DNA of 63,044 nucleotides, counting the filler, from Lenisia limosa (lineage: Eukaryota > Protista > Breviatea), in the NCBI GenBank assembly GCA_001655205.1. It is 10 parts of 10 records of this genome, joined end to end, with 100 filler letters (N's around TTAATTAATTAA, not from the genome) between each part and the next. Parts side by side here need not be neighbours in the genome. Positions count along the whole stretch, not along the records: positions 11,209 to 20,061 come from LPNZ01004886.1; positions 20,162 to 26,279 come from LPNZ01007562.1; positions 26,380 to 39,175 come from LPNZ01010168.1; positions 39,276 to 41,310 come from LPNZ01006484.1; positions 41,411 to 42,934 come from LPNZ01008310.1; positions 43,035 to 52,037 come from LPNZ01004696.1; positions 52,138 to 58,379 come from LPNZ01011629.1; positions 58,480 to 60,991 come from LPNZ01009581.1; 2 more parts are not named here. The stretch is one strand, 5' to 3'. Under the pieces are notes generated by a model. The model was given only the letters and a program-made list of their open reading frames with translations. It had not been told where the DNA came from and searched no databases. Below are positions 11,501-60,990 of this stretch, in pieces (within the stretch, counting starts at the first letter, position 1; every line of letters begins with the position of its first letter). The translations under genes and the position numbers were made by a program.

Positions 11501-14500
11501 ATGATGAGTCACCTTACGAAAGCGCTACCAGCTCCCCTGCCTACGCTGCTGTAATCAAAATCTTGATAGGTATGTTTATTGTTAACTTTTCACAATATTA
11601 ATGATGTCACCATGTTGTCCCCCCCCCCTCACCAAGGCGCATTTCACCATGTTGTCTCCATTTTTACCTTCACCCCATTCTTGAAATTTTCCTTCATTTT
11701 ACGTATGCTGGAGTGATGGCATGCGGGGCTGCAGAAGCGACTGGCTTGGGTTTTGTTTGTTTTGTTGTTATCGACCTCATGTGTTGTTAGACAACTGAGT
11801 TGATTTTGGGCTTTTTTTCCCCATAAATTTTTCCTATTCCACCCATAGACTGTATAACCCCCCCAGGCTCGTGGCAAGGCAGTCAAAGATCCCTAGTGTT
11901 GGACCTGTTATACCGCATTTCCACTGCGTACGTACTCCAAACCGGCATGATTCCTCAGAGCATTCTAGACCTCTGGATGGTTGGTGCTTTTTGACTAGGG
12001 GTTCACTTCGGTTCAAAAAAAAGACTGGATTTCTCGAAAACCATCGATAATTTGCCGGTCTTTTTCAAACTGAATTGAAGCCCTACCTTTGACCATCATA
12101 TAATTCTGGGGATTTGCCTGCTGTTCCCTTTGCAAATGATCGGGTGCATTACTTTACCATACTCCAATATAATATCTCTTATAATAAGCATTGATCAGAT
12201 AAAACCTTGTTTATATAATAATAATAATTGTATATAATAGTACCTATAGTAATCTGTATATGTATGTACATGTAGTATATAGAATACCCCTTCCCTAACC
12301 TATCCAGGCCATATCACACATAATGAGCACCAGTGTTGTCAGTCATTCCGACATACTGGATGGATCAGACGCTCTCCTCCCGGTACAGTTTAACAACAAG
12401 GTGGGACAATGGGTCTTTTATAGAGTTGAGTCTGGTTTAAATTTTTGTTTCCTAGATATTCCAATTTTGACCCCCCCCCCCTCCCCAGTCTCTGGGAGAG
12501 TTCTTGTTCTTGAAGACGTGCACAATGGCGACTGGAGTTACTGAGGCGTGTGTGGCCTTCCCTGATGGCTTTCCTCCGCCTGCTTGTAAGGGGCAAACTT
12601 TTATAATTAGAGGGGGTACGATGATTGTCTTTTCATTCTAATTTTATTATTTATCTGGGGGTGAGTATGTCGTTGCTATGTGGAGGCAGTAAAACTGGAA
12701 AAATGATTTTGGAATTCATTTCACCCAGTCACTAAAAAATACCCTCCCCCCAGCCATTGAAAGCGAGGACCCAGGCCTGGATCTGCCCCGAAAGGTGTCC
12801 TCTCGCATCCTGGCTGAAATCATGCCGCAATGCCTTGATATTCAGAGCGTTGTTGCTCAGATGGTTGGCTCTGACTGAGTTCTCTGCTTCACCCAAATGG
12901 GAAGGTCTTTAATTCATGGCTTTTTGGGGAAATGGACATTAAATTAAACCCAGGGGAACCAATGAATACATAGAGATACCGTAAACAAATTATCATACGC
13001 TTTGATTATGCTCAACTTTACTTCACCCAAATTGGGAGGGGGGACAAATTTAGATTGAAGGGGAGTTGATACCAATTAAGACAAGAAATTTCTATTGACA
13101 GTTATGTTATTTGCACTATGATTATTATTTCCTGCCTCCCTCCGAAGCCTGTTGATATTGAAGTGTGTCATTGTATCTGACATATTGCCTTCATTTAAAT
13201 GCTCTTGTGACACTCCACAGACAACAGCCCTACTCTCTTTACCTGGATTTGACAGTACCGTCAAAGCCATTGAGGAAGCAAATGCCCCCCAGGTTGGTCG
13301 CTTGTGTTTGTCTTCCTCTCTGAATTGTTCTGAAGGCTAAATCTCGATAAATCCTCAATAAATATCGATATTTCACCTGTCTTTTCTGGACTGTAGGGAA
13401 GCCCTTGATCCATATCACACAAAAGTAACCCAGCAGCCGCAGGTAAGACCACGTGCTAATACGCTGACGAGCCCACCATCACCCCGGGCCTCACCGCCGC
13501 CGTCATCGCCGCTGCCAACAGTTCTGCCCATGGCTCTGGTCCACACCGCTCTCCGTGCCGTGGTAGTGGCGGCTCAATGCGGCTCCGAGGCTCTTAATGG
13601 CGTTTACGGTACGGGGGTGCTTTCAAGGGAAAAATGTTATGATGCTATTTTTTTATTATTCAGATGAATGTTGAAATTGTGGTGTTTTGTATTTGGGTGG
13701 TTAATGAGGTTATGAATTGTTTTTTGATTCGGTGGTTGATGGCACTTCAGCTTAACTTCCTCCTGTAAGGAGTTTCTCCAATTTTCTTTATTGAGAAATC
13801 TCATGATCTGATGTTGATGTCTTTGCAACTAGTGATTAATCGCCTTATAGTGACGGGAGTTCTGGTAGCTGCTCTAAGTATCACTGACGATTCTGAAGAG
13901 GTTTGTCACCGCATCATTCCGAACACCAAGGAAAGTGACAATCCAGCTAAATTCATGAATAATCATATTATCATAGACAAGTCATATGTATTATGTTTTT
14001 TATGAATTATTTTGCTACATAATTATGTACATAATATACATATCATATATGCATATGATATTAATTTTTGCATTTACATACTTTACCATGATTTAATTTA
14101 TTATCAATCATATTACAGTCTATTATTAAACTAGCGACACGCTTTACTTTTATGTAGTCGTCAATGGAAGAGCACATATCAGCAACCATCCAGACCCTGG
14201 CAGATGAGGCCGTTCGCGTCATAAGTGGCTGTCTCGCTGCATCCTATGCGCATGGCGAGAGATTGGTAAGCAAATATCATGTGTCTTTGATGGTAATTTG
14301 GTCTTCTTCTCTTTAGTACAAAGAATGTCGGTATCGTTCGCTATCTCCCAAGAGGAGATTCTCTTCTTTCGGATACATCTTGTCACTATTCAAATACCTG
14401 CTACATCGGGAACAAATCTTATGCTATGTAGTCTAATGCTCTTCTCTTGAGCCTTACCTCTTCAGCTACCAATGGGTATGGGGATGGGGTAAAGGATGAC

Positions 14501-17500: not shown

Positions 17501-19822
17501 TTCGAGAGTTTTGAACTGAGAGTGTTGGCCAGCTCTCCTGTTTCACCTACAAAGAGTTCCGGGAATGGGACAGCCCAATCAGTGACAACAACCTTCTCCT
17601 CAGCACAATTTCCGGTGGCGTTGACATAAGACCAGTTGGTGAGTTGAGAAAAAGCACTTGAGAAGAATGAAGGATAATGGATGAGGGTTTTTCAAAACCG
17701 CATTCGCCAATATATATACTTCCCCTAAAAAATGAGCACAACATTTGAATGTTCAACTTGATCAGTGGGGATGGGCCTTTCAAGCTGTTTTGCATCTATT
17801 TCTCCAAGTTGTCTGTATCTTTTTTCTTTTTAACGAGCTGTTTTGATTCAAATGCATAACTTAGTGTATGTAAGTATGTTGTACTGCATTACATATGATA
17901 TGTACCGGAATGGGTGGAATGTCAACATGGCTTTACCTCGGTTCTTAAAAAAAACTGAATTTCTGGATATTTTTTTTTGATAAATATCGATATTTTACCG
18001 CTCTTTTTCCGACCAGAGCATTTGTGGAGCATTCCCTCTCGTCACCCCTCCATTTCCCTCACCCCTTAGCATCAATATCGTTCCTCACTGCCAATTGGCC
18101 TGGTCGCTTCCGTGGCCTCATCCCCATCCTCACGCCCTCGGCCCTCGCATACCCCAAGCTGGCCTCCGCTCTTCACGCAGCAATCACATTTGCCCCGGTG
18201 GGTTTTTTTTTTTTAGGGTAGCTGGAAAATAGAGGGAATTAATCACGTGGTCTTAAAAAGGCGATTTATTGTAAATCGGAGATCTTTACAATCTTTAGTC
18301 ATAAAATCAATCATACGGAAGGGGTTACTGGCATTTTTAAATATCGCTCAAGGAAATAGATACATCGATATGTTGAATAACAGTTTTATGTGATATTGTT
18401 TCGCTTTTTTTGACAGCTTGAGTTTTAAAAACTGTTCACTTACCTATTCTGGGCTACAATTGTTAAACAACGCTGATTCTACTTCAGATGGTTTGTTAAT
18501 TGTTTAGAGTGAAATTCTGGTTGCTGCCCCTCAACAAAACGACTCTGATAACCGAAGCGAAGTGTTCTTAATTGTAAGAATTATCAATATTTTCCAATAT
18601 TATTTGGTAATTATCCATTTTACCGTCTTTGCTGGAGTGATATGATGCAGCGCTGCAGAAGTTCCCTTCACCCCCATAGCCTTTGAGTTTTTGTTTATAA
18701 ATTTCCCATTTTTACTCCCCAAAGCCCTCCGACAACGCGGGCACGGCGTCAGTCCCCCTAGCCCAGCACTACAGATGTTCCAATGACGGCCTTTTCGCAG
18801 TCGGATTGGCCCTGCCCTACGCTGCTGCTTTGTGGGTCTTGGTGACCTTCATTCTTTGTTCTAATTTGTTAATCTCAGATTTATAATAGAGTAATTCTCT
18901 TCAGTATGACAGAGACCGGGATAAGTCTTGACTGATATTCCTTGGGAAATCACATTGCAAATCGGCCAAGACTTCTCCCGGTCACTCTGTCTAAAATGAA
19001 ACGGGATTATATTACCTCATCATCATATTATTGCTGTTGTTAATAACATATAACCAATTCGTGTGAAAAACTGTTAACAGAATATCATCATCCGCCCAGA
19101 CTCAAAAGAGGGTTCCATGATTTGTCTGCCACACTGCTGCATTGGCTCTGCTCTGCTGTCGCTCCACACCACGGCCCACTTCTGGGTTGCTTGCGTGAGG
19201 GGTATAGTACTATTCAACAGGCTTCTCCATCTAAATTTCGTTTGAGCATATATGTTATCTTCTTTCTAACCCCTGAAGAGCTAAATGAGTGCGATAGAGG
19301 GTACCTTGTTCTATCTCCCCTTGTGATAACCGTACGAATAATGACACCTTGCAGGAGAGGCACGAGTTGCCATTAACACTGGTTCGTATGAGTCTCTGGA
19401 GCTAGCGAAAGACTTCCTTGTAAACAAAGGTGGGGGCTAACATGGTTTTGTTATAATGAAACTAGGGTACTTATTAGGGCTCCGTGCATTTAAATTTTGA
19501 GGAAATTAATTGACAAAATTAGAAATTAATGACTGGAATAGTAGCCAACAGAGTTGATTTTGGGGGTTTTGTTTCATAATTTTTCGATTTTCCTCCTCTG
19601 TATCCCTATCCCTCCTAAACCAAACATTTACCTGCCAAAGTTTATTACCATTGCAGAAGNNNNNNNNNNNNNNNNNNNNNNNNNNNNNNNNNNNNNNNNN
19701 NNNNNNNNNNNNNNNNNTTGGGGCTTTTTTCTTTTTGTTTCATAAATTGTCCAATTTGACCCCTCTCCCCCGCAGCCCCATCCCTCCTTTCGTCCCTGTC
19801 CCCCGAGGGTCTGACATGCTGG
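11501..19822 (+). CDS. Large multi-exon uncharacterised helical (HEAT/ARM-like?) protein, partial
   Basis: Series of GT-AG bounded exons, several with compatible phase: DDESPYESATSSPAYAAVIKILI, SIESEDPGLDLPRKVSSRILAEIMPQ, LEHW|SKPHS across intron 15181-16155, STLFSLLPNAAPQMNVIIETCQEIAWRFL; no family motif recognised. Confidence 0.6.
11714..11862 (+). repeat. Family B intron 3'-end repeat, copy
   Basis: GATGGCATGCGGGGCTGCAGAAGCGACTGGCTTGGGTTTTGTTTG...CAACTGAGTTGATTTTGGGCTTTTTT..CATAAATTTTTCC, then CCCCCCCAG acceptor. Confidence 0.8.
11998..12083. mobile_element. Family A hairpin MITE (TA-flanked), intronic
   Basis: TA|GGGGTTCACTTCGGTTCAAAAAAAAGAC...GTCTTTTTCAAACTGAATTGAAGCCC|TA. Confidence 0.85.
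15300..15990 (-). mobile_element. Degenerate IS630-Tc1-mariner/pogo-type DDE transposase relic nested antisense in intron 15181-16155
   Basis: One frame with several stops reads KLINNNA*RHPES...GWILPYYTSHLNMLEGPTFARA, resembling DNAxxH...LPPYSPxLNPIE or LPxHTSHxLQPLD. Confidence 0.5.
18908..18991. mobile_element. Family C hairpin MITE, intronic
   Basis: GACCGGGATAAGTCTTGACTGAT...TTGGGAAATCACATTGCAAATCGGCCAAGACTTCTCCCGGTCAC. Confidence 0.85.
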
Positions 19823-20161: not shown

Positions 20162-23100
20162 CAGAACTTTGCAGCCCTCGTTCATCTGGCCGCCGTACAG
20201 CTCCGGGAGTCTGATGCTAATTCCCTCACCATTCCTGTTGCCTCTGATGTGGGTGCAGAGGGCAGTATATCTAAGGATCGCAGATCTTGAATCTACGATA
20301 TTACCTTTGACATTTTCAACATATTTCTGATTATCTAGAAGCGAATGTCAAGACGTATTACTTACGGAGGGCAAAACGAGTAAGTTCGGTTAAATACTGA
20401 CTCGTTTCTTTGACTCCGGCCTTGGTTTGATTTCCTGATTCAATTTGTCCTTTGTACTTTTACGCCAATATTCTTCATCGAGATTTCCTTCGTTTTACTC
20501 CTCCTTATTAGTCCCAACGGAGAGGGTTCGGACGACGACAGTGACGATGAAGAGGAGTTCGTACCCCCTCTGGTGCCCGGGGCTTAGATAGTGGTTGAAA
20601 TAATGGATAGAATGATGGATTCCAGTTTTATCCTTGTCAATGTGTGCTTTCTTCTCTCCTTTGATATGTATTTTTTTTTGCTTTTAAGGCTTCGAGGAAA
20701 GGTCTTGACCTTACTTTTCCCACCTCCCCGTTTACCCTTTCAGGAACTCACACAGCCTGAAGCCCTCGCGGCCCTCTCCAAACTGCTCACAAGTAAGAAC
20801 TGATGGGAGCTTGGACTATTGGTCTTGATTGTCTTGAAATGACGAATCTCATCTCAAAGAAATGGTACATATGATATATATCTCGCTTACTGTTTTCAGA
20901 AGACACAGATGTTCTGGCAGCACTCCTCACCACCCCCCTTCCCCCTAAGGTTAGAGCTTTGTTTTTTTCTTTGAGTGAAAAATGCCATTTGTACGTTTTC
21001 CTCATCCTGCTGAGGCAATAATATCATTTGCGATTATTTCACTTCTCACCCCCAGGTGTTCGCCCCAATTCTCAAGGCGGTTCTTGGCTCCGCTGTACAC
21101 GCTNNNNNNNNNNNNNNNNNNNNNNNNNNNNNNNNNNNNNNNNNNNNNNNNNNNNNNNNNNNNNNNNNNNNNNNNNNNNNNNNNNNNNNNNNNNNNNNNN
21201 NNNNNNNNNNNNNNNNNNNNNNNNNNNNNNNNNNNNNNNNNNNNNNNNNNNNNNNNNNNNNNNNNNNNNNNNNNNNNNNNNNNNNNTCCCCTTGCTGCTA
21301 AGATCGTAGCCTTGGAAACGTCAGGAGTTCAGGCCTCTGTGGGTGGATTTGTGCTTTTCGACCTATTTCATCAATAAAAGACAATAAATATTTTTCACAA
21401 CACCCTCCCTTGTGATGGGATGCGGTGCTGCAGAAACGACTGGCCTGGGATTTGTTTGTTTTGTTATCAACCCTCGTGTGTTATCAGCCAACAGAGTTGA
21501 TGTAAGGCTTTTTTTTTGTTCATACAATTTTCAATTTTCGGCAATATTCTTCATCGAAATTTCCTTCGTTTTACTCCCCCCCCCCCNNNNNNNNNNNNNN
21601 NNNNNNNNNNNNNNNNNNNNNNNNNNNNNNNNNNNNNNNNNNNNNNNNNNNNNNNNNNNNNNNNNNNNNNNNNNNNNNNNNNNNNNNNNNNNNNNNNNNN
21701 CAAGACTCTTTTCGGGTTAGCTTTTTTTGAACGGTTTTGGACTTCCATTCAAAAAAACACCCAAGAGGATTTCTAGGTCTATAGCAACTAGATTGGAGAG
21801 TCAATTTTTCGGACTTTCCCTTACTCCCCTCCCCAGCATATGGCCAGCTCTGCGGCCGTTCATGGCTCTCTTCCTGGCTTGCCCCAGTCCTTCGCGACCT
21901 CATCCCAAAAGCTGATACTTTCCAGGTTCGCTGCAGTATCTAATATGACGGGTACTGGGTCTGTTTCAAGATCTTTTGTACAAACATCATGATTATGAGG
22001 TTGTAGGCAAATGATTAGAACCAAACACTTTATTTCTCATTTCTACAAATTGTTTGCATAAGGGAGGGGGTTTGACTCTTTCATAGCGTATCATAATTAT
22101 GGTGGTAGGATAATACCTCATAGTAGACTATTTTCTGCAAGACCCATATTCTTCATCGAAATTTTCTTCGTTTTACTCCCCCCCTCCCTCTGACGCCCAG
22201 GTTGACCCCACCCGCCTGCCCCTAGGCATGACAGTGGATGAGGGCCTTGCTGCCTTGACCGGTGCCTGTGAAGCCATATTAACGGGCTTGGAGCAGTCCG
22301 TACCGTCACTCCCAGCGTGGGCTTGGGAGGGGTGAGAGTTAAAGTCAAAGATATAAATACACCTCTTTGGAGAATTGTTTGATTTGAAGTACATTGTTCA
22401 TATTTATTGTTACTTTGCTCCAGTGTTGTTATGTGTAATGCTAATGTTTGTAGCTTGATATTTTCATAAATTAACTTCGCTGTCAGTCTGTCATTAATTA
22501 ACTGAATCAGGACGCTGCGCGTAGTTCTTGGCGTGGTATTCGGCACAATCATGCAGAAACTCCCGGGTTCCGAAGGACCTGGTGCCCTGACTTTGGTAGG
22601 TACAACATGACTTCTTTTTCTCTGGTTATATTCTACTAAATTCAGATATTATATCATAATGTACTATATGTAAATGCTCGTTTTCTTCCCTTCTTTGAAA
22701 TACCTCACAATACCCCTGTTTGTTTTGTTGTTANNNNNNNNNNTGAAGTGAAATGGTGTGGGCGGCTTCGACTTAGATATTGCTCTATATTACACTATAT
22801 TTCAATACGTGTTCACGGCGTTGGCCATATACCTTATTGCGAAACTATACATATAATATTGAAGATATGATGATGCAGGTTAAAGCCCTCGACAAGGGAA
22901 TGAAGAAGGAGGAGTGCTATCGAATTCTCCAGCTCTTCATCAATGCGTGGGGGGGGGGGGGNNNNNNNNNNNNNNNNNNNNNNNNNNNNNNNNNNNNNNN
23001 NNNNNNNNNNNNNNNNNNNNNNNNNNNNNNNNNNNNNNNNNNNNNNNNNNNNNNNNNNNNNNNNNNNNNNNNNNNNNNNNNNNNNNNNNNNNNNNNNNNN

Positions 23101-26100
23101 NNNNNNNNNNNNNNNNNNNNNNNNNNNNNNNNNNNNNNNNNTTATGATTGATTTTCTAGTTTAAACATTAATCATGTTGTCAGTAACGTTCTTATTCATA
23201 GCCTAATAGCCTTAACCATGTTTGTAGTGAACAGGAGTTCAAAGTGCGTCTTCAGAACATCTTCAACGACCAACAGGCCCCGGTAATTATGGACGTTTCT
23301 GCAATTCAGGTGTGTGGTTAGGATAAACGAGGTTGGAGGTAGAGTGGTAGATTATAATAGCTATTAGTAAAATGATTGATGGGGTGGACAAGAAAGACTA
23401 TATTGGATGATATTAGGGCCTCACTTCGGTTTGAAAAAAGACTGAATTTCTCGATAAATCCTCGAAAATTATCGATATTTTACCGGTATTTTTCGAACCG
23501 AAGTGAAGGCCTAGTGGTATTGAAGGATTTGATGGGAGGGTGTTTGATGCTTTCCTAGCTGTTGACTACCATGGTAATAAACCATTAAACCGTCTTCTTC
23601 ATTTAGAGCACATTTCTTATTATGCAGGTATTCTCCCAACAGCTTGCGCGACCGGAATGGCAAACATCTCAAAAGTGCTCACCATCGCTGTCTCAGGTCT
23701 GTGGTGCCTGTATCAAGACGACAATTAAGAATACTGTTAGATGATAATGCGTTGGTAATGCTTGTATTTCATTATTTCATGATTTTGCGGGCTAAAGTAT
23801 TTAATTATCATCCATCCAGGAGGCCTCTTTGACAGTTCCATCATCCGCGACCTCTTCCTTGTTGACACCAACCCCTGGATCCAGGCCCAGGCAGACAGAA
23901 TAAAAAACGTGACCATGTCCATTATTGTATGAGGGGGGGGGGGGTTTNNNNNNNNNNCGGGCCGGCCGGAGCGGTCAGTGCCGTTGTACTGCAGGAGTCT
24001 GTGGAAGATCTTTGCAGTAAGGGGTTAAGAAACTGTGTTTTTTTTGAAACTGTTTAGCCAGGGTTTGAGAAGAATTTCTGATTAGTACGTTATTTTTTAT
24101 CGAAATTCCCTTCATTTTACTCCCCCNNNNNNNNNNACCCTAGATGCTATGCAATAAAACAAATAAATATATTTAGGTGGGTCAAATTGCAGCGCATGAA
24201 GATTTTGGAAATTCAAAACCTAGGCTTACAATTTATACATAGGGATACCATGAAAATGGGCATCTTTTGTTGTATTTGGTCTTATTTCTAAAAACTACTT
24301 CCCCTCCCCGGGTATTTCTCCCTTGCTCTCTTTTACCTCCTATAGCCCCTCGTGAGCTTTCTGGCGTTATTTGATTCTCTTTCTTTCACAGCTGTTTCTC
24401 TTTTTTTCCCTCATTTTTTTTCTTTCTCCCTCCTCTCTTTTCTTTTCTTTCTTCTCTCTTTTTCTTTCTCGCTCTTTCTTTGTCTCTTTTCTTTCTCTTT
24501 TCTTACATTCTCTTTTGTTTTTTTTTTTCACTCTCTCTCTCTTTTAACACTGCAGTGTGGGCTCACTGACAAAGACATTGAAGTTGAGCGAACCATTCTC
24601 AACAGCCAGAATCCTGATAATGTGGGGGATTGGGGTTAGATTAGGGCTTCCCTGCGGTCCGAAAAAGACCGTTTATATATCGATATTTATCGAGGATTTA
24701 TCGAGAGATTCGGTCTTTTTTGGGACTGTAGGGAAGCTCTGGTTATATCAGAGCGCAATTGTTCCAAAAAGGGAGAGGAGTGATTGTGTTTTTTTTTTGT
24801 GTTGTTTCATATTATATTCCATTTTGACTCCAAACAGATCACATTCCTGTCCTTGAGCAAAGATCGAAACTCAACTGTTCTGGAAAAAAGCTTCTTCAAA
24901 GGCGGCATGGCGCATATTGGCGTTTCACCGAGAATCAAAAATAAGCCAATCAATAAGTATGGCACCAAGAACAAACTCGAGCCGGAAGTGGGGGGGGGGT
25001 GTAGATAATTTCGATTATTATTTTTCAATAAAATCAAATCATGGAGGCAAAATATATGGGGGTCCGACCCCCTGTGGTTCAAACCTTCACTTATATATCG
25101 TTCTCAAAAAGAGTATATCAATTTGTAGATAATTAAGTTTTAAAAGACACACTCGATACAGCCACTTAAAGTTGAACCTTGACCACTCTTGGAAACTGGT
25201 TTCTGTATTGCCTTATATCAAGTCTTAAAATACAGACAATAATTTATTTATGTTAAGTCGTAGAGTAGTTAGGTCATTTAACGACTAAGATTGTCTCATT
25301 TACCATCAACAAGAATATCTTGTCGCACAATTGGACTAAAACAACTTAAAAACAGTACATTAAGAATTTTTTTATTCATTTATTGCCCAATATACAAGAT
25401 TAGAGGTTACTTGTCAATTTTGTAAATCATTGGAATGTGTCAAACTGTCGATGACGTCATTTTCGGTCACACCCCCATTTACGATATTAGTTTACCTCCA
25501 TGATCACATCCACGCACTATAGTATTTGACTTGATACCAGGTCACCATCTACCAAATTGAACTGGACGCTCGGACGAAACAAGAAAAACGGACCTTGAAC
25601 TGCAAGGTTCCGCTTGCTCTCTTCACGTCACACAAGGGCTTCTTCGGCAACTTCTCCGTTCCTGATGCGGGAGTGTTTGTTGCTGAGGCCAGGGTAGGTG
25701 GTGATGGTTGTTCATGGTTGATGGTGTGGACGGCNNNNNNNNNNNNNNNNNNNNNNNNNNNNNNNNNNNNNNNNNNNNNNNNNNNNNNNNNNNNNNNNNN
25801 NNNNNNNNNNNNNNNNNNNNNNNNNNNNNNNNNNNNNNNNNNNNNNNNNNNNNNNNNNNNNNNNNNNNNNNNNNNNNNNNNNNNNNNNNNNNNNNNNNNN
25901 NNNNNNNNNNNNNNNNNNNNNNNNNNNNCAGGAAAATCTCGATAGTTTTCGAGGATTTATCGAGAAATTCAGTCTTTTTTTGAATCGAAGTGAAGCGCTA
26001 GTTGACAGCGTCTTGGGATGAATCTACCTATTTTGTTAGTATTATTATAAATAATCCAGTATCTCTTATAAGCATTTTGTTGCGAACGGCTTCGACCAGA

Positions 26101-26825: not shown

Positions 26826-26869
26826 TAATGGTCGGTGATCAGTTTGTCCAGTAAGTCGATACATACATA

Positions 26870-29800
26870 TGACAATAGAATCCAAGGTACCAGAAAGAAT
26901 ATCACGAAGAACAACGAAAACCCCATTATCAGTGAGGTCTCATTCGGTTCGAAAAGGCCAATAAATACAACTCCCCCCCACTTATCAGTGACCTCATAGA
27001 GCTCAACAGGCACGGAGTTTTCCTCGTTGTCAATTCCACTGGGGGTGGATAACTCTTCCTCTTGCCTTGAAGTCGCCTTAAAAGTGAGAGACGGGGGGAG
27101 GGGGGGTAAATTGGAAAATTAATGAAATAAAAAAAAAAACCAAATCAACTCTGTTGGCAACACAAAGGTTTTATGTACTTCAACATTTCGATGATAACTG
27201 TATTATATTTAGTGTTCCTCTGGTAAAAAAGCCTGGTAACATGTCGATATTATTCGAGGATTTATCGAGAACAAGATTTTTTATTGGGCCACACGGAAGA
27301 TCTAATTCAATCAATAAAACCTCGGGACACAGAAAAAGCCTGACCAGCCCACCGTTCCAAGGAATCTGACCGAGGCGATGAGAGAGGCGTTGCGGTTCTC
27401 CAGCGTGACAATTCGGTCCTTCAGCTGCTGGGTCTCGGCCCCGAGCCGGGCTTTGGTGTCACTCAATCTTGTAATGTCGGCCTGGGGGGGGGGGNNNNNN
27501 NNNNNNNNNNNNNNNNNNNNNNNNNNNNNNNNNNNNNNNNNNNNNNNNNNNNNNNNNNNNNNNNNNNNNNNNNNATGAAATGATATCATAAGCTGATTAT
27601 CCGTGACGATTTGAATAAGAAGGTCTTCGATCAGCTATGATACCCCTCAGACCTTCAACACGCGTCGCTCTTCGAACCACTCTCGCATGGACACGGGGGC
27701 GCCATCAGCCACCTGCTTGATACTGACTTCGGCTTCCAAACGCTTGCGGTCGCGCATCAATGTGTCTAGAGGGGGGGAATTATATTTTTAATGGAAAGGA
27801 AAGACCAAGAGAAAAACCCGAAAACAACACAACATATCGAAGTTGGGGGAGGCGGGTGTTAGTAATATTATCTAGTAATATACGAAAAATAGGGCTTCAC
27901 TTCGTTCGAAAAAAGACCGTATTTCTCAATAAATCTTCGAAAATTATCGATATCAAAGGTACTTCGACATTAGCCCCCCAAACCAAGTTTAACTTCATAG
28001 TCATCAATTGCCGCATTCCGTGACACTAAGTCCGATTTCAGCGCATTAACTTCATCCTAGCACAGTAAAAGAACAATGGTATTAGGATAATTATGTCAAT
28101 AAATGAAACACAAGCTTATCAGCAGACGATGAGAGTATGGTACCCCAATGTATTCTTATGTTTCCCTGGATTTTTTTAGTATATATTTTTCTTGCCCAAA
28201 AAAACAGCGATCCCTCCCCCACTTGAAGATTGATTCTGGATTCCACCTCGGCACTAAGCTTCTCAATTGCCTCAGTTTTGGTGCGTTGAACGTGGCGTAA
28301 CACGCGGTTCTCGGACTCATACTGAAGGGTCAATTATGTGCATCTGAATTGACCCAAAAAAGGGAATAAACGAGATTTTGGTGACGGCTTCGTCTTTGCA
28401 TCTGACGAAGCTGTCAATCTCGTTTATTCCCTTCTTAACTCCCCCCTTTCTTTATGAATATCCGTAATGGGTTAACGCATTCCCTAAATATAGTGATAAG
28501 TCTTAACCGATTAGCTATGTGATTTTCCAAGGAAAATCGGTCAAGACTAATCCCGGTCACTGCATGTATATACCTTACCCCCCCCCCNNNNNNNNNNNNN
28601 NNNNNNNNNNNNNNNNNNNNNNNNNNNNNNNNNNNNNNNNNNNNNNNNNNNNNNNNNNNNNNNNGACGTCAACCATCCGCACACTCCGAGCCTCCACGTC
28701 ACGCTTCAGGTCCTCAATCTGCTGGTTCTGCAGCCGGGCCTCCTTATCACGCACACGCAACTATTGCGTAAGTGAGGGTGGGGAGTAAAATTGGAAATTT
28801 TATAAAACAAAAAAAAAGCCGAAAATCAACTCTGTTGGCTAGCTACACGTGAGGGTTGAGAACAACAAAACAAACAAAGACCAGGCCAGTCGCTTCTGCA
28901 GCCCCGTGGGTGGGGGTGGGGCTGGAAATCAAAATACACCATAGTTATTTACAAATCGAAATTACACTGAGCGCAAGTCCTGACACAGATATTGATTTAG
29001 ATTTAGTCAATCGTATCAGAACTTATCGAGATCACTGAATATGCATGCATATGTACGGAACATATAATACAGCTGTCTTTGTTTATGGTCACATTTTCTC
29101 ATTCTTAGGTTGTATGGTAAATGGTTGGGCTCGGTCTGAGTGCAAATGACTTGCCTACCCCAGATTGAAGGTCTGAAATCAACTTGTCTTTTTCAACAAG
29201 AGAGTCCTCAAGCTTTGTCAAGTGGTGGAAGTAGGATTCACCTTAAAGGGTAAACGAAATAAAAATAACAGAAATAACTTCCCTTGACACCAAATTCATT
29301 GATACTCCGATGGAGTCATATTGTTAAAGAATACACAAAAACCAGATGTGAGAGTAACCATCGCTCAAAGGTCAAGAATGATCTTGATCAAACTAATACA
29401 AGAGATAGGGGAACAATCGAGTCGGTCCACAGCACTCACCATCTGAGGAGCTCTCAGCAGCCTTCTTTGCAGCTAAATAGAGTTAGAGAAGGAAATGCAA
29501 CAAAGAAGAGAACAAATAATTTCAGATATTGAATCTCTTCCCCACCAGCAAGATCGTTTCGCCGCAATACACCAGCATATCTCTCAGCCTGGCTTTTGTA
29601 TTGTGCTGTCTCATCTTCCTGGGCTTCCCGTTGCTGAATGAAATAAATCGGTTGATCAGGACAAAGTGGAAATAAGTATAGTGATTTACAGCTTTCACCC
29701 AATGTGATTACTAAGACAATATGATAACTGAAGTCCACCCCCTCCCCCCACAATTCTCTCTCTCTCCACTTCGCGCTCGAGGCTGATGATGCGCTCCTCG

Positions 29801-39300: not shown

Positions 39301-40801
39301 TGTTCCTCGAGTGTCATTTGGTGGAGGTCCATCTTATCACTTAACTCAAGCCAGGCGCATGACCAAGCCTCACCTGCGGGTATTATACGACGTAAAATAG
39401 GAAAATTTATGAAACAAAAACAAAGCCAAAAATAGACTGGTTGTTGAGTTGGTAGTGGATTGTTATATTGGGGGACTCTCCGAACAGCATACCAACGTAG
39501 GTTCTGCGTGTTTTGTCGTAGTATGTGCCGTAAGAGGACTGGAAGGGGGTCGCTGCGGACACAGCGAAAATGTTCATGTCTGAGGGAAGGTCCAGGAACA
39601 TTGACCCGCTAGATTATGAGTAAAAGGAGCATAAAAATAAAGATTCAGAAAAAAAAGATTTAGATAATAATTTAGTATAGAATAGTAACAATGTTCATAT
39701 CAGATGGGAGGTACAGGAACACTGAGCCGCTAGATTATGAGAACAATAAATGTAAGAGAGAGCTGTAAAGCCGCACACTCGAGATAAACCATGTAAAATA
39801 TGGTTTATCAAATATTTGGGCGTTAGATATGAATAAGGCGGATGCTGTTACGTGAATACCCTGAAGGGCCCAATCATGATTTCGTGTTCAAAAAACAATG
39901 ACCATAGTTTTCCACTTTGTTTCTTTTTTTTAAAAAAAATCAACCATTGCAATATCGGTTCATAAAAAGGCAACTTCAGGTTTCAATTTTAACCCCCCCC
40001 CCCCNNNNNNNNNNNNNNNNNNNNNNNNNNNNNNNNNNNNNNNNNNNNNNNNNNNNNNNNNNNNNNNNNNNNNNNNNNNNNNNNNNNAAAACGTAAAAAT
40101 TAGTGCGAATTTTTCAGATGATTAAATGCATCTCATCAAAAAAAAAAAAATGGAACCCAAATGTGAAGAGCCAAGACTTTGGTTAGTGTTAGGTGTTTGG
40201 ATTTCTGTACAGGTAAAAAAAAACACTCAATTCGTCCTTAACTTCTCGATAAATCGATATTTTACCGTAGTGAAGCCAAATGACACAGCATAAGCCTGCA
40301 AACAAACACAAACTCAATCTACATGCAGCCAAGTAGCTCTTACCTCCTTCTCTTGCATGTGTTTGAACGTTTTGATGAGATCAGTGCCAGAAAGACGGTC
40401 AGTGCAGGAAAGGAAAACAGCGTCAGTTGCAAAACACACCGCATTGAATCCTCCGTGATCGACTATAGAGTTAGCGGTTGGGCAGGGCGTTAGTCATAGT
40501 ATGTATTATTATCTAACAATAATATCGTTCGATATGTAGAGATAAGAAATAAAACAATGTATTTTAAAAAATATTATCAAATTATGTATGAAAAACAGAT
40601 AATTACATGTATTATATAAGTAGTATTTTATATATTATTTATGTAAAAATATACTGAAAACACACTGACTAACGTACATACATGTATTTTATGACAATGC
40701 CTCATTCACCCCCTAAGCACCCCTCTCACCATAGTAAACAAAGACTTGGTCATTAGGACCAGACTCAAGGACTGGACGACCTCCAGTATGACTGCCCTCA
40801 C
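39301..40801 (-). CDS. Legumain / asparaginyl endopeptidase (peptidase C13), internal part
   Basis: GGRPVLESGPNDQVFVYY|VDHGG (catalytic His), LIKTFKHMQEKE, GSMFLDLPSDMNIFAVSAATPFQSSYGTYYDKTRRTYVG|EAWSCAWLELSD; the EAC catalytic-Cys exon would lie in gap 40005-40087. Confidence 0.92.
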
Positions 40802-41110
40802 CTGCGGGGGAGGTAAAATTGGAAAATTAATGAAACAAAAAGCCCAAACAAAGGGGGGTAAACAAAGGAAATATAGGAGTAAAAATGAAAAAATTTATGA
40901 TAATTGTGGGGGTGGGGGGAGAGTCAAATTGATTCCTGAAATAAAAAAGCCCAAATCAACAGTTGATACCAACAAAACAAACAAAGCCCAGGCCATTCGC
41001 TTTTGCAGCACCGCATCCCATCACCCCAGCGTAAACAAAGGAAATTTCAACGAAGAACATAGGCTGAAAGGTGTGTGGGGGTAAAACGAAGGAAATTTCT
41101 ATGAAAAGTG
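40802..41110 (-). repeat. Family B composite copy ending exactly at a legumain 3' splice site
   Basis: Minus strand: GAAATTTCCTTCGTTTTACCCC...GATGGGATGCGGTGCTGCAAAAGCGAATGG...TTCATTAATTTTCCAATTTTACCTCCCCCGCAG|exon. Confidence 0.85.
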
Positions 41111-41164
41111 TTGATGTGAGAAGGTAATAATATCGGGGGAAATGATAATGCAAACAAAAAAACC

Positions 41165-42201: not shown

Positions 42202-42234
<33 letters not shown>

Positions 42235-46800: not shown

Positions 46801-48320
46801 GATTGTGATGAAACATAACAATTATTTGGTTCGGCTTAATATATATCATTAGTACACTGACCGGGATAAGCCTTAACCGATTTGCTCTGTGATATCCCAA
46901 GGAAAATAGGTCAAGACTTATCCAGGTCACTGTACATGCATCTATCATTACCATTTATTTTGAAAAACCTCTCGTACCTTGATATTCTTGATAAATCTAG
47001 TAGTAAGTCACAGGTCTTTATTCACTATACAGGGACACCTCGAACTCGACAACTGTGATGTAAATGGAGGAGGATTGACCCTTCAGAAAGCAGGTGAGTG
47101 CACACCTATTAAGTTGCTATTTTCGATGTTTAACACCATAAACCTACGCTTTGCTTCAGGCACCAGTTAACTATGATGCTTAGTTTTTCCATAATCACCA
47201 TGGTATGTGGTTGGGGGCATTTCTACATATCATCATATCATATGATATAGTATATATCACATGTATATGTACTGTATATCGTTCCAGAACTTACGCATCC
47301 AGCCACCACACGTACCTATAGCACCGTCTTTAGTGACATGGCAAATGCTATTTCGATTGAAAGTGGATCTATGCTTGACTCTTCGGAAACGACCTTCACT
47401 GTGCCCTCAGGTGATGGGCTGTAGGTGTTGTGTAAATTTTATTCTTTCCAAATTATTTGAAAAATTATCCCCTTGTATTGACTCTGCTTTCTCAGAAGAT
47501 ATTTGAAGTAGTATCAATGTAACCAAAACAGACGCAGCCGCCTCGAAATGCCTCAGTGCCTACCACTCGACTGTGATCTCCAATTCCGATACCTATGTGA
47601 ACTGCGAAATACTGTAGGTTTCCCCTTGTGCTGCGATACCTTCAATTTTTGGTATTTTCGAAAATGGGTTCCGATGGTCTTACCTTTGTCCTTTTTTTTT
47701 TTTTCAAAACTTATTCCCTTAGTGCCGGGTCTATTGAAATGAGCCATGTGTCACTGCATTCTGCCAAGGTTCGATTTCAAGAGTTTATTCAATTTAATAG
47801 ATCCATGAGTATCCATTTTAATGAAAGTATTTCTTATTTAAAGTTGGGGCTACATTTATGAGAATGGATTATAGTTTCCTTTGGTAGCGTATTATGTATG
47901 TTCTTAGAGTACTTTTTCTTAATGAAACAGACAGAGAATGCCGGCGTCAATGACGTATGCACCCCAGATGCTTCGAGTTATTGCACACCATAATTCTGCT
48001 GATAGATATCTATGTATTTACTATACTCTATTGGCATCACTTCTTCGCCTTTCTGGAGGCAAAAGATACTAGCCTAACCTGGCGAAGGCTATTGTGATAT
48101 TTCTAAATAAAAAAATGCCTCTGATTCCATCACCAACCACAATGACTGTTTAATTATGTCGCCGTGGACGCATTTACAGAACAGCTTATCCATAACGCAC
48201 AACAGTTGTCAATCTAGCCATTCGAAAAAATTATTATCAGTCGAAGACATTACGATATTTGATCTCCTTGTCCCACCCAGAAGTCCAAATAACAACTTTA
48301 ACTGACCGCTTCAATATCAG
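43870..48320 (+). CDS. Multi-exon uncharacterised protein, possibly secreted with beta-helix-like repeats
   Basis: Many short exons with hydrophobic/Asn-Ser-Thr alternation (NIRFENLSFV, DCVVTVNSVSYSLVARKSQVYFYNTE, GHLELDNCDVNGGGL). Confidence 0.45.
46855..46932. mobile_element. Family C MITE, 78 bp, TA-flanked, intronic
   Basis: TA|CACTGACCGGGATAAGCCTTAACCGATTT...AAATAGGTCAAGACTTATCCAGGTCACTG|TA. Confidence 0.92.
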
Positions 48321-48613: not shown

Positions 48614-51600
48614 TTAGAAAGACAGGAGTGTGTCGGTTTCTTTGGGCTTAGGCTTGCCCAAAACCCCTCCAATGCGCTCCACCTCGGTCATCAGCATCAA
48701 TGCATTATCACTGATACTCTGGCCTGAGTTTTGGAGGACAAGACGATCGACATTCGGCATTTCAATGAGAGTTGATTCTGGAGGGAGAAGGGGGGAGGGG
48801 TACAATAAAACAGAAAAGTCCCATAATCAACTGCTGGCAAAATATGAGAGATACTTGGGGGACTTCAAGACAATGGAAACAGGCTAATAGACATATGTAG
48901 ACACATGAAGAGTCTCAGATAGGAAACAGAAGTCAAAAATTGATATCCTTCTGAGGAAGCAAATTGAATGTCATATTGACAAAAAGGCCTCTTGCACACC
49001 TTTGCCCCATGCGGCAGCAAAAAGGAGACGAAGGAAGGCTGAGGCCTGGCTAATGAGCGTAGTGGTTCCAGGTACTAGGATGGCTTCACTCTGTGGGGGA
49101 TTTATGGGGGAACGCCTAAAAACTGATGTTGGGAAGCTTGTCACATATTAGAGCATGATACTTCGGTATAGGATGACTTTGATCTTGGTAAACAACTATG
49201 GCTTTGGTATGGCTGCCCTGCCCACTTTGAGGCGAAGAATGGTCAGACTGGCCCAAGCCTCCGACTCAATACTCAGTAAAAGAGACGACAACCGCTGAGT
49301 CACGTGGATGGCAAGACTGATGGAGGGAGGGGGGAGGGTGAGTAGAAAAAAGAGGAAGATAAATCAATGTTTGCGTNNNNNNNNNNNNNNNNNNNNNNNN
49401 NNNNNNNNNNNNNNNNNNNNNNGGTGGAGAATGCATAAAAAACAAATGCATCAAAATGCCCTGTTTGGTATTTACCCACTCTGGGTTACACGCCCTTTCA
49501 GGACAGAGGGGGCTTGACAGATCAGCGTCCTTTTGAGGAACAGGCACAAAGAAAACATTATTGTTCTAAATGGTGAGTACATTCGTTTCAAGAGGAGCTG
49601 AGGTTTCGTTTCGAATAAAACATGCTGAGTGCAGATGGAAAAACCTCCACACTTAACAGTTTTCCCCAAGAGACCATGACTCACCTCCTCAACCGCCTCT
49701 TTGTTGCCTCGTTCAATTTCCCTCAAGAGCCTCTGAATGTCATCTTCAACAGCCTCAATTTCAGGATGCGAATCTTCGTCTGAAGTCTCGCAGCCATTGG
49801 AACTGTCCCAGTCTGATGATTCCAAAGAACTGCAAAGTAATAAGGTAATGTGCAGAAAAAAATTAAGATTATTTGATCCCCCCCCCCCCTCCACCCCAAA
49901 AAACACATATTGTCACTGGAGTCAATTTGCAACTGGTAACCATAACGAAAACTGCACCAAAAAGTCAATATTCACTATTAGCAGGCATATTAGCTATAAA
50001 CCTTGCAAACCTGCTTCTGCTTCTAGACTTCTTCAGAGTGCGCCTCGTCTCGTTCACTCCGGTTCTGCGGTGTTAGGCAAGGGCAAACAGGATTAAGAGC
50101 CAGATATATAGACCAGGAATATTTCAACCTAAAATCCTTTGTGAGACACGCAAGACGTACAGCAGCTGCAAAGCACCCTTCATACATAGCGGAAAGTAGT
50201 CCCCATTTCTCAGTCTCATCAACCTGCAGAACCCCAGCAACGTCACGCACTGTTTTGAGGCAAAGTGTCGCAGTAGCAAGGGCGATGTTATCTGTTGTGT
50301 GAGAAGGTTTATTAGAAAGAAGCCACAGTAGAAGAATGCACAACCCCCAAAATCGTAACATTTCAATGCTAAAAACAGATACTCCTACCAACCTCTAGTA
50401 TTGATCGGAGAAACTGGGGTAGGGACAGCGGCAGTGGCAAGAGCTTTGGTAACGATTTCGGGTAACGTCTTTGGTAAAGGTGTCATTGGGGACGTAGGAG
50501 AGACCCTGACTTGGGCCGTGAGAGGACCGCAGAACGTGAGCACGGGAATATTACCTGGAAAGTGAAACGCTGGAAATGAGTGATATACTAAATGGTCATG
50601 TTGGGGGGGGGGGGCAAGGTATTGGCTTNNNNNNNNNNNNNNNNNNNNNNNNNNNNNNNNNNNNNNNNNNNNNNNNNNNNNNNNNNNNNNNNNNNNNNNN
50701 NCAAAAGGCAAAGCGTCAATCGCTTTGACAGCACCGCATCCCATCACCGGAATGTTGTTGGGGAACAGATCAATGGAGAAATTCATATTAGCGTAGTACA
50801 AAAAGGGGAATGTGGCTCAAAATATGAGTGGATGTTAGGGGCACCTTTAAGTCCGAAATAGACATTTCAAGAACCGTTGATGATTCGAACGCCCTTTTTG
50901 GACCGAAAATAAGAAAATGGGAATCAGAAAGCAAACCTCTCCCTTTTCGCCTTTCTTTTTTTAAAACTCATTATTTTCAGGTTTAATTATTTACCTATTT
51001 CCCCCCTACATAGCCCATCAAGACCCTGGATTGGTACAAAGTTTCTAACTCCAGATTCGCCAGAAATTACCATTCCTCCTGCATAGGTCAAGGGAGTACA
51101 TATTGATATGAATAAGCATTGGTAGGAAGCAAATGGGAGTAATAGTAGGGGAGGGAGATATAGTATGTATATTCTGAAAATAACATATGATATAAATAGC
51201 GGAATAAATATGACTACTATTTTGTGAATTTAGCCCATTATAGTATCAGAATTTTGAATTCAACTCTGTCAAGGTGGGAAAATGCTCTTGAAATATATAT
51301 GTAGCAAAAAGAGGAAAGTAAAATGGAAATGGATGACCCATCATCATACCCTGCGTAATAGTGATATGAACAGTGGTTTCATTAGGTCGAATAGCAGGCC
51401 AAAGAGTCACAGCATCTGCAGGAAGTCAAATAGGCACAGAAAATATGACATCAACTCCAAAAAAATGTGACATCAGTCAAAGTTAACTATTTGTTGAGAA
51501 ATTCAAAATAAAAAATCAAACAAGTTTGGATTTGAGAGAATAACAAGATGATATGTCTTCAATAAATGCCTTTCTAACAATCATTTGAACAATTCATTTT

Positions 51601-58629: not shown

Positions 58630-60990
58630 AGGCCCCCGATTTTGGACCGGTTCGCACAGTGTCCAAATCGACCCATACTACCTATGTAACCACTTGTAGG
58701 CGAAGCGTAGTGTGGGAACAATTGGATTGGAAACAAGTGTAACTCGAGGGGGCAAAGTGTAATAAGAAGGGGATGGCAGGTTAGATACTCGCGATAAGTC
58801 CTGATACGATTAACTAAAGATATCTACATCATTGGCTACATATTTTCATTTGGTGATGGAAGGGCATACACTTGCAATAATTTATTACTCAATAGGTCGT
58901 TTTACAGTATGGCCACACAACAAACATTGTTTTTGTTTTATTTCTCATCCAGATATCTACAATTTTTTATTCGCGATAAGATCTGGTACGATTAACGAAC
59001 ATATATATCATATCACTTTTTGGATCATTTCACACATGTGAACTATTATTTTCCACGCGGTGATATGGTACCTCATATCCACTCGTATCAACGAAACGGC
59101 CATATGGTCATATCACTAGTGAATATGGGTTAACATACAGCCGCACTTTTTTTATTCTCCAGGGGATGGCAGGGTCTATGGTTGCGGCTACAGTCCCCAT
59201 GGCCAACTTGGTATTGATGCCACCACGTCTCTTGTGAGAGAAATCTCCGTGCTAGGTGATAAGAAGGTGGGTATGGAGGGGTATTGTTATTGTTTCCCTG
59301 CGGTCCCAAAAAAAAGACTGAATTTTTCGATAAATCCTCGACAAATCCTCGACAAATCCTCGGTAAGTCCTCGACAAATCCTCGACAAATCCTCGACAAA
59401 TCCTCGATAAATCCTCGATATATCCTAGATAAATATCGATAAATCCCAAATAAATCCTCGATAAATATCGATAAATGTCGCTATGTTACCGGTCTTTTTC
59501 GGACCGTAGGAAAGCCCTTGGTATGATGAAGGCATGAGGCTTTGTTTGTTTGGAGTTTGGAGTTGTACGCTTTGTTTGTTGTTATCAACCCTCGTGTGTT
59601 CAACTGAGTTGATTTTGGGTTCTATTTTTTTTTCATAAATTTTCCAATTTTACCCCCTTCAGTTCGTGATTAGAACCTCTAAGCCAATATTCTTCATCGA
59701 AATTTTCTTCNNNNNNNNNNNNNNNNNNNNNNNNNNNNNNNNNNNNNNNNNNNNNNNNNNNNNNNNNNNNNNNNNNNNNNNNNNNNNNNNNAACGTCTAT
59801 GTTCTAGGCGCCAACACATACGCTCAGCTTTGTCTGACAGCGTCAAGTAAAGTAATTACTTACACGCTGGTAGGAAGAGGGGCTGTTTTGCATTAATATT
59901 TATTGAAAATAGGACCATAAATATATTTGCAGTAAATCGAAGCTTAATCATAAAGATCGGGCGGTGAAACCGGGCACAAATAAGCATGTGACCAAAATAT
60001 ACACACAAACTCATATCATGTATACATATGATATAGTATGATATATTATATGATATAATATATGTGGATTGGCACCTTATAGTTGACCAATGCTTTTCTC
60101 GCAAAGGAAGGCCTTTCTGAGAATCTCACCTTTTAGTTGACAGACGCTTTACTGGCAAATAAGGTCCTTTCTGCCCACTGCACTTTAACGAACTGCATTT
60201 TCGTGACCGGTGAGTTATCTAATTTTATCTGTGTTGTTTTTTTTTGTGGGTGGGTGGGGAGAGCGTTTCTGTGGTTTTGTAGCTATTTTGGGGGGAGGGG
60301 GGCTAAGTATTAGTTAATCAGTTTCTTTGGGTGGAGTGTAGAGAAATTAGTGTGTTACCAGAAAGTAATATTACCGAAAAGTCTCAATGATACTCTGATG
60401 TACTCGAGATGAACCCTCATGTTATCTTCGTTTTTCTTTTCGAATCGAAAGTCGGTTATATGGTCACATCACCAGCGGTCAATGTGACAACAAATGATAT
60501 TAGTTGCTTCACTTCGGTTCGAAAAACTGCATTTCTCAATAAATCCTCGAAAATTATCGATATTTTTCCGGGTTTGGTTTTTGAACCGAAGTAAAGCTCT
60601 AGATATCAGTCNNNNNNNNNNNNNNNNNNNNNNNNNNNNNNNNNNNNNNNNNNNNNNNNNNNNNNNNNNNNNNNNNNNNNNNNNNNNNNNNNNNNNNNNN
60701 NNNNNNNNNNNNNNNNNNNNNNNNNNNNNNNNNNNNNNNNNNNNNNNNNNNNNNNNNNNNNGCCTTGGTGACGCCAATCCGACCCCTGTGGACAAAAGCA
60801 CTCCAACCAGCATTACTGCCCATTTTCCTTTTGCTATTGATGAGGTTGGTGATGATGATTGTGATGGTGATGGTAGTGAAAAATGTTGTTGTTGCAAGTC
60901 AACAAAGTTGATTTTCGGCATTTTTATGTTTCCTAAATTCTCTCATTTTACCCCCCATAGGATCTTCAAATTACAGTAGGGTCGCACTAC
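58630..60990 (+). CDS. RCC1-repeat protein, partial
   Basis: VRTVSKSTHTTYVTT|WDGRVYGCGYSPHGQLG, NVYVLGANTYAQLC, LGDANPTPVDKSTPTSI. Confidence 0.75.
59296..59517. mobile_element. Family A beta MITE with internal tandem expansion of an 11-mer
   Basis: CCCTGCGGTCC...(AAATCCTCGAC/T) repeated about 8 times plus variants...GGTCTTTTTCGGACCGTAGGAAAGCCC. Confidence 0.9.
60505..60598. mobile_element. Family A hairpin MITE, intronic
   Basis: GCTTCACTTCGGTTCGAAAAA...TTTTTGAACCGAAGTAAAGC. Confidence 0.85.

Follow-up and report, generated by a model that had tools for sequence, protein, structure and literature searches.

The stretch of DNA from the intron-dense eukaryote Lenisia limosa analysed here (GenBank assembly GCA_001655205.1), which we call the window, is 63,044 nucleotides (nt) long and consists of ten scaffolds joined by N44-12mer-N44 linkers, of which ~59 kb were examined. 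It carries family B, a repeat of 30-165 bases found in 15 introns on six of the ten joined scaffolds, including introns of a legumain gene and of a gene for an RCC1-repeat protein. A preliminary description of the window had portrayed B as a non-palindromic repeat with two modules, present on six unrelated scaffolds, that seems to supply the 3' splice-site end of introns. Our analysis bears out the two modules, the six scaffolds and a mobile family confined to the sense orientation and to the 3' regions of introns, but it indicates that B hugs the 3' splice region without owning it: the acceptor is not B's, and branch-point donation is partial.

Repeats were grouped by all-against-all BLAST within the window. 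A hidden Markov model (HMM) of module 1 was built from five long copies as seeds, with 20 local-Markov windows and the reversed window as decoys. Host gene strands and introns were taken from a gene model built with B masked, and were checked by RNA (host regions S4 and S2) and by Pfam (S5 and S9). Two sequencing runs, both from one study, contain window DNA: X1 (share 0.99) and the polyA RNA run X2 (share 0.28). X1 is possibly the window's own source and does not count as independent support. Branch points are predicted throughout.

Module 1 is ~130 nt long, with a sharp start, GTGATGG, in five copies and the end TTT(T/G)AC; the remaining module-1 copies have the same 3' end and staggered 5' starts. 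Module 2, of ~33 nt, is a paralogue of the last 30 nt of module 1; as a control for this paralogy, none of 88 branch-anchored non-B segments matches it as well as the module-1 ends do. The copies are as follows.

11677..11842 (+), copy a: module 2 (11677-11702), a 10-nt linker and a full module 1 (GTGATGG from 11713), in host intron 11570-11866; a host-type branch motif is found between B and the AG, 9 nt from the latter
12422..12471 (+), copy b, marginal (14 bits): an 88-nt intron holds the 3' part of module 1, whose TTGAC, 18 nt from the AG at 12488, has no rival as branch candidate
18590..18715 (+), copy c, each piece weak: a module-2-like end, linker, module-1 start at 18637, internal gap and module-1 end; TTTAC 10 nt from the AG at 18724
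19543..19593 (+), copy d1: truncated module 1, ~63 nt upstream of the predicted acceptor 19656
19718..19760 (+), copy d2, after a gap (14 bits): TTGAC the sole branch candidate, 16 nt from the AG at 19775
20466..20498 (+), copy e: solo module 2; TTTAC the sole branch candidate, 14 nt from the AG at 20511
21412..21574 (+), copy f: full module 1, then module 2, then a C-run; acceptor inside a gap
22144..22176 (+), copy g: solo module 2; own branch motif CTGAC 7 nt from the AG at 22200
24090..24120 (+), copy h: module 2 on its own, followed by a C-run and a gap of 10 N; the acceptor is uncertain
27106..27167 (-), copy j: within intron 27077-27352, confirmed by RNA; the branch motif CTCAC is separate from B and 8 nt away from the AG
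28785..28906 (-), copy k: within intron 28761-29158, likewise confirmed by RNA; the branch motif CTTAC, again separate from B, is 8 nt away from the AG
39392..39441 (-), copy l: in intron 39374-39492 of the legumain gene; the branch motif, 9 nt from the AG, is separate from B
40813..41113 (-), cluster m: legumain gene, six head-to-tail pieces (module 2, module 2, module 1 minus its hairpin, three end fragments); the last TTTAC lies 12 nt from the AG at 40802
50703..50747 (-), copy n: module 1 present in its 5' part, with the remainder in a gap; at least 74 nt from 50555, a predicted acceptor with a branch motif of its own
59565..59710 (+), copy o: module 1 (to 59653), an AG-containing spacer and module 2 running into a gap, in the RCC1-repeat gene
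60893..60951 (+), copy p: truncated module 1; TTTAC 10 nt from the AG at 60960

The 15 introns comprise 13 strong ones and two marginal ones (b and c); piece d2 probably lies in another intron and was left out of the strand count. As an observation the preliminary description largely holds, but it had missed the one at 39392-39441(-) and the pile-up at 40813-41113(-).

The family is real. BLAST grouped 14 pieces under module 1 and six under module 2, with no both-strand self matches, unlike the palindromic families A and C of the same window. The module-1 HMM gave 10 matches of at least 18.9 bits, namely the five seeds and five non-seed copies at 18.9-39.7 bits, against 17.6 for the best decoy and 11.3 for the reversed window; the module-2 HMM gave eight matches of at least 22 bits, all of them seeds, against a decoy maximum of 16.6. 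Three B pieces are marginal at 14-15 bits, and short T-rich partial matches at 18688, 24781, 57763 and 48848 are at noise level taken singly. HMM matches below ~12 bits are also sense-biased, by composition alone. Separate DNA contigs with unique flanks cover the B loci, and RNA joins flanking exons. Long copies are 67-85% identical in pairs, a divergence that marks them as old. Summed X1 contig depth reaches 555,258 at 11746, a figure that is not a copy number, against ~31 in unique sequence; together with the agreeing density of ~1 B locus per 4 kb of window it implies thousands of genomic B copies. The T content of B (0.40-0.42) compares with 0.37 for the host intron sense strand. Column identity is 0.87-0.96 in the 5' part of module 1 and 0.64-0.74 in its splice-proximal 3' part; the suggestion that B is a retained splicing module is weakened, because the part next to the splice site is the less conserved one.

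The orientation of B is uniform, as the preliminary description had stated. All 15 introns carry it in the sense strand of the host gene (binomial p=6e-5), as do the 13 strong ones taken alone (p=2.4e-4). Host strand rests on RNA for S4 and S2 and on Pfam for S5 (legumain) and S9 (RCC1), and the B-masked gene model supports it in all regions with margins of 29-195 score units, S3 and S7 relying on the model alone. Family A, oriented by its own asymmetry, served as the control: 11 of its 18 pieces are sense and 7 antisense, and the strand split differs from that of B by Fisher's test (p=0.025 with 13 introns, 0.009 with 15). No B copy above noise occurs in the ~20 kb outside modelled genes. DNA-level targeting of C-runs that is blind to the transcribed strand fails to account for this, because sense G-runs are equally common: 100 non-B introns hold 53 sense C-runs (of at least 4), 38 of them near the AG, and 58 sense G-runs, 37 of them near the GT. 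The probability of 15/15 sense copies under such targeting is ~2e-5, and 0.003 for the most favourable motif tried. Mirror targets on the other strand thus exist without any B copy, so the choice of strand does not lie in the DNA target. A plain selection filter is weakened as well, since antisense B has no excess of cryptic splice sites over sense B (acceptors 5 vs 6, donors 12 vs 15, antisense vs sense) or over ordinary intron interiors. Antisense B as a mimic of donors was rejected, its GTAAAA start scoring below all true donors.

RNA support is concentrated in S4, where one contig runs through 12 exon joints of the gene, including both B introns with acceptors 28761 and 27077, so that splicing out of B introns is confirmed in 2/2 cases in the RNA-covered gene. 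RNA cover of S2 is a single two-exon contig with a 1083-nt GT..AG intron, 16987-18069 (16986 joined to 18070). This contig conflicts with the gene model, in that its donor is upstream of the modelled one and exon-like segments at ~17254-17638 are skipped; alternative splicing or a model error are both possible, and the gene model is accordingly imperfect. Lack of RNA cover at other loci carries no meaning. A protein search did not recover the spliced host proteins of S2 and S3 (two host exons gave no matches), and that for the S9 host protein had 150 RCC1 relatives among the matches listed, none identical; the only gene recovered in this way was a deoxynucleoside kinase gene, which is without B. 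Exact B motifs had no matches in the metagenome, prokaryote-genome and viral collections.

The position of B within its introns is constrained too. Thirteen introns have a readable acceptor, the acceptors after 21574, 24120 and 59710 lying in or beside gaps. Among the acceptors listed in the preliminary description, 28761 and 27077 are confirmed by RNA and 12488, 18724, 19775, 20511, 22200, 40802 and 60960 match the model, but 11862 should read 11866. That B runs into the AG within 0-35 nt was found true in 11/13 readable introns, where its end lies at most 30 nt from the AG, against 2/16 family A and C copies (p=1.5e-4; Mann-Whitney U test p=1.4e-4); it fails for the copy at 19543 (~63 nt) and the copy at 50747 (at least 74 nt). 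The first of these, d1, is a counter-example to the idea that B supplies the acceptor. Under uniform placement the joint probability of such 3'-end proximity is ~9e-6 in the nine gap-free introns, a test that omitted d1 and n as well as the hidden f, h and o; the proximity comparison given above takes in d1 and n.

What B gives to the splice site is limited. There is no family AG, as the 7 nt ending in AG take 10 forms in 12 introns, so the proposed donation of the acceptor did not hold up. By expectation maximisation over 101 modelled non-B acceptors, the branch motif of the host reads YTNAC, its A lying 8-10 nt ahead of the final G in most cases, and NTNAY occurs at 7-12 nt in 16/17 non-B introns confirmed by RNA or protein, with a background chance of 0.30. 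Donation of the branch point is plausible in 6/13 introns, where the terminal TTTAC or TTGAC of B is the only candidate: c and p at 10 nt, m at 12 nt, and e, d2 and b at 14-18 nt, pushed out by C-runs. The other 7/13 (a, d1, g, j, k, l and n) have a host-type NTNAY at 7-12 nt downstream of B (chance of 7/7 ~2e-4), and both RNA-confirmed introns belong to this group. Well-spaced acceptor-like sites adjoin B copies at 28916-28928(-), 59649-59662(+) and 11837-11848(+); the first, upstream of copy k, is unused in the RNA contig.

The 5' parts of B-bearing introns are alike neither mutually nor to the start of B, in agreement with the earlier observation that they are unshared, and B is preceded by 21-252 nt of unrelated intron sequence. 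None of the five full-start copies begins at a predicted donor, their starts lying 73-143 nt or more inside the intron. No B copy makes up a whole intron; its share of the short introns b, c, l and p is 42-77%, and ~100 modelled introns in the window are without B. The host splice code is unusual in its own right: donors are GTNNG with G-runs, GTGGGG being the commonest of 100, these G-runs mirror the C-runs at acceptors, and many assembly gaps fall there.

The ends and flanks of B give further indications of how it is built. Module 2, linker and module 1 follow in this order in a, c and m, the reverse order occurs in f, o and another genomic copy seen in a loose end of an RNA contig, and e, g and h are solo copies of module 2; stacking is head-to-tail, up to the six pieces at 40813-41113. 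A C-rich 6-mer directly follows 12/15 B ends but only 14/101 host branch sites (p=4e-7). The 15 nt ahead of B 5' edges are C-rich too, with 61 C against 37 expected in 14 copies (p=4e-4); this is the fair version of the test, a five-copy version having used copies picked after inspection. The C-tract had been taken as part of B; with C-rich sequence also upstream of many copies, it is at least partly landing site and not cargo. The start of full copies is donor-like, GTGATGGG standing at the 38th percentile of true donors and above 96% of decoy GTs, and in 3/5 full copies this start is preceded by a branch-like motif and a 6-13-nt tail. The broader rule that every full copy is preceded by the end of a previous unit was rejected: it holds for a, c and piece m3, is weak for m1 and fails for f, n and k.

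Target-site duplications (TSDs), which the preliminary description had proposed to look for, give no general signal over 14 B copies (permutation p=0.58), the copies being old; a strong TSD-like flank match (14/17) occurs only at copy k, that is in 1/14. Inspection of B revealed no terminal inverted repeat (TIR), in keeping with the absence of both-strand self matches among B pieces. Rfam gave no match over B, and no RNA polymerase III boxes were seen in it by eye, nor was there a tRNA match. A hairpin, ATCAAC...GTTGAT, folds in one B copy (z -2.0), for which RNAalifold gives four invariant pairs and no covariation.

Several other repeats and genes share the window. Family A is a ~100-nt imperfect-palindrome repeat resembling a miniature inverted-repeat transposable element (MITE), with 19 pieces in 11993-60602 (e.g., 23407-23526 and 52677-52790); it is nearly always intronic, in both orientations (11:7), and has very high X1 depth. 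Its 11-nt core is expanded to a minisatellite at 59320-59470, and four sub-threshold microRNA-like Rfam matches all fall on it. Family C, also palindromic and MITE-like, is ~90 nt long (18901-18991, 28483-28579, 36075-36169, 38555-38637, 46846-46952 and 493-545). A third non-palindromic repeat (26052-26121(+), 31812-31884(+) and 46069-46124(-)) has at least one copy antisense to a modelled host gene, unlike B. Gene regions at 32594-33990(-), 39276-40810(-), 61600-62830(+), 9820-9945(-) and 59100-60991(+) hold genes for a deoxynucleoside kinase, a legumain/peptidase C13, a Rad6-like UBC, an RCC1-repeat protein and an aldehyde dehydrogenase (Pfam E 9e-4). The eight short introns of the deoxynucleoside kinase gene are B-free and confirmed by P0001. 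In scaffold 1, the regions 764-2331 and ~3500-3720 show duplications, nearly identical and flanking 10-N gaps, that are likely assembly redundancy, together with a reading frame that by eye resembles a recombinase or nuclease fragment.

Measured against the known classes of elements, B falls between several. It shares with Introners and introner-like elements (ILEs) the sense orientation in transcription units and the splicing out of the host intron, and it lacks both end-to-end intron similarity and the carrying or recruiting of both splice sites. The TIR and TSD of MITEs and DNA transposons are missing. Like short interspersed nuclear elements (SINEs) and other elements without long terminal repeats (non-LTR), it has a fixed 3' end, variable 5' truncation and a simple tail, although its 5' ends possibly reflect later decay. 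Helitrons and Helentrons have the termini 5' TC and 3' CTRR with a subterminal hairpin; those of B, by inspection, are GTGATG...TTTAC, with no conserved covarying hairpin. Nor does B look like a structured noncoding RNA (snoRNA, ribozyme or retrozyme), with no Rfam match and no conserved fold.

The closest published parallels are with introners. The introner elements (IEs) of Micromonas include IE-A, like B a sense-only intronic repeat with partial, nested and merged copies in canonical introns, for which RNA or reverse-splicing mobility was proposed in the accounts of it cited here (PMC3879977, PMC4540971). According to the relevant parts of PMC3879977, most IEs make up an entire intron and bring both splice sites, which no B copy here does, and their remnants are a minority not described there as hugging the acceptor, whereas the 3' end of B is fixed at the branch region. 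Fungal ILEs and sister stwintrons, in the sections at hand, resemble B in having no TIR or TSD, a bias to genes and a proposed RNA route, but they are whole introns with stable folds, while B is unstructured, 5'-truncated and without an AG (PMC3609843, PMC12403724, PMC9860276). In Huff-type DNA-transposon Introners, as summarised in PMC9860276, the element is tied to one splice site, a likeness to the earlier idea of B as a half-Introner; those elements span the intron and take the other site from the TSD, and B has neither TIR nor general TSD. The microsatellite-targeting long interspersed nuclear elements (LINEs) Waldo, Mino, Kibi, Koshi and Dong, and SINEs, share with B a fixed 3' end, 5' truncation, landing in simple sequence and stacking, as far as the pertinent part of PMC3812793 goes; the DNA-level targeting of such LINEs should be blind to the transcribed strand, unlike the strand-locked B. 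Antisense Alu offers, as B does, a pyrimidine-rich strand usable in the 3' splice signal, but in the corresponding section of PMC3088655 Alus give rise to new exons and show depletion close to real acceptors, whereas B is enriched at constitutive ones. B is like an RNA-type introner (sense-only, without TIR or TSD, in the terms set out in part in PMC9860276) yet SINE-like in architecture, at the edge of the introner concept. Searches of the open-access literature listed no paper on a family confined to the 3' ends of introns that already exist.

B is a high-copy, noncoding family with a fixed 3' end, variable 5' ends, stacking, a sense lock, proximity to acceptors and no AG of its own; its copies lie at the branch points of introns or shortly upstream of them. 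From these 15 introns in ~59 kb we infer a likely mechanism. Our preferred reading, which we hold tentatively and at somewhat less than an even chance, is that B is a non-autonomous mobile repeat that spreads via intron RNA into the 3' ends of existing introns and creates no introns. The template would be an excised intron RNA (lariat, debranched or circularised) ending in B and a C-tail, and re-insertion, guided by splicing or by the transcript, would place it in C-rich 3'-terminal tracts of existing introns. The B RNA would join 3' end first, either by partial reverse splicing or, as an equally compatible variant, through a reverse transcriptase that switches template on a nascent transcript, at its C-tract. 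Incomplete copying, or a failed second reverse-splicing step, would leave 5'-truncated sense copies. Insertion between the host branch point and the AG would turn the TTTAC or TTGAC of B into the branch point (6/13), and insertion just upstream of the host branch point would keep the latter (7/13). A copy at the 3' end of an intron might then be released again as the 3' terminus of an RNA, in a self-feeding loop. A transcript-aware step of this kind would explain strand, position and fixed 3' end together. Published proposals offer precedents in part: in the Micromonas IE model, as outlined in PMC4540971, the intron 3' OH joins first; intron RNA could insert within an existing intron, at random sites (a passage of PMC12403724); and intron-lariat spliceosomes can link a trimmed lariat tail to a 5' splice site, with a transposition route discussed in the section concerned (PMC11146597). 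The junction of module 2, linker and GTGATGG is similar in shape to the processed intron circles described there, but is seen in three copies and has a modest donor score. It is possible, if doubtful, that B is more specifically an intron-tail parasite, for which the spliceosome both releases its RNA and aims its copies at existing branch-point regions, the circle-type (branch-tail-to-donor) junctions being fossils of an RNA intermediate.

A number of points weigh against the RNA route. Three loose-end upstream flanks of other genomic copies (two, plus one four-contig consensus) are not C-rich, and in one DNA contig a family-A element follows 39 nt after a B end, which places that end mid-intron. 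B has no stable fold (z +2.9, +0.1, +1.2), unlike fungal ILEs. Its likeness to a donor is modest, with a +5 T that is found in 10% of donors, and the start of copy c stands at only the 9th percentile. Neither a reverse transcriptase nor an autonomous partner or empty site turned up, although no search was aimed at them. The sample is only 15 introns in ~59 kb, with no copy that forms a whole intron, and branch points are predicted, not mapped. Given the age of the copies, the 5' loss may be later decay and TSDs may have eroded.

The main competitor is an ordinary retroposon of the SINE type, served by a partner endonuclease with C/G-runs of either DNA strand as its targets; antisense copies, which would come to lie next to donor G-runs, would later be lost to selection. 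Non-LTR elements are marked by a fixed 3' end, truncation at the 5' end, a tail of simple repeats and stacking. B has all of these, as well as the TSD-like match at copy k, and the existence of the microsatellite-targeting LINEs (in the portion of PMC3812793 cited) and the sense bias of Alu near exons, ascribed to selection in part of PMC3088655, would fit. Such a history would demand that one orientation be lost almost entirely, while copies of family A are tolerated in both orientations and near donors; cryptic sites are not in excess in antisense B, there is no general TSD signal, and in mammals, on the evidence in that same part of PMC3088655, selection gives a partial orientation bias and depletes transposable elements near acceptors, where B is enriched instead. 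Harm from the A-rich composition of antisense B is conceivable, so we regard this explanation as unlikely but still of real weight. Decayed Introner introns, in which B once made whole GT...AG units and either the 5' parts diverged or donors slid upstream, would account for the span of full module 1 from a donor-like start to a branch-like end and for the large share of B in b, c, l and p, and nested, merged and remnant IEs do lie inside canonical introns in the Micromonas examples of PMC3879977. Against this, no full-start copy begins at a donor, the 5' parts resemble neither one another nor the start of B, there is no family AG, and a separate branch motif lies downstream in 7/13, which leaves it improbable.

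Two further explanations fare worse. A splicing enhancer or 3'-end module of the host, propagated by ectopic gene conversion and retained under selection, agrees with the T-richness shared with the intron sense strand and with the six introns in which B is the only branch candidate; the splice-proximal part is, however, the least conserved, ~100 modelled introns do without B, six-piece pile-ups and internal deletions look unselected, and no structure covaries, so that we think it very improbable. That B is an artefact of generic T-rich intron ends or of collapsed assembly draws on the compositional sense bias of matches below ~12 bits, but non-seed copies at 19-40 bits exceed the decoys, the 0/88 control sets the paralogy of module 2 apart from ordinary branch regions, and DNA contigs with unique flanks and RNA across flanking exons vouch for individual loci; for the 13 strong loci this account is largely refuted, and we give it next to no credence.

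Whether spliceosomal intron RNA can return to the genome, by reverse splicing or intron transposition, is a long-standing open question. Whole-intron introners leave that mechanism and selection entangled, since an exonic insertion in the wrong orientation is lethal. Intronic insertions escape that filter, as the two orientations of family A illustrate, and a strand-locked, 3'-anchored family of thousands would therefore offer a natural test of unusual cleanness. Surveys with end-to-end intron similarity as a requirement, as described in part in PMC9860276, are likely to miss a family of the B type. If B is indeed an intron-tail parasite, it would gradually rewrite 3' splice signals in their thousands while adding no intron.

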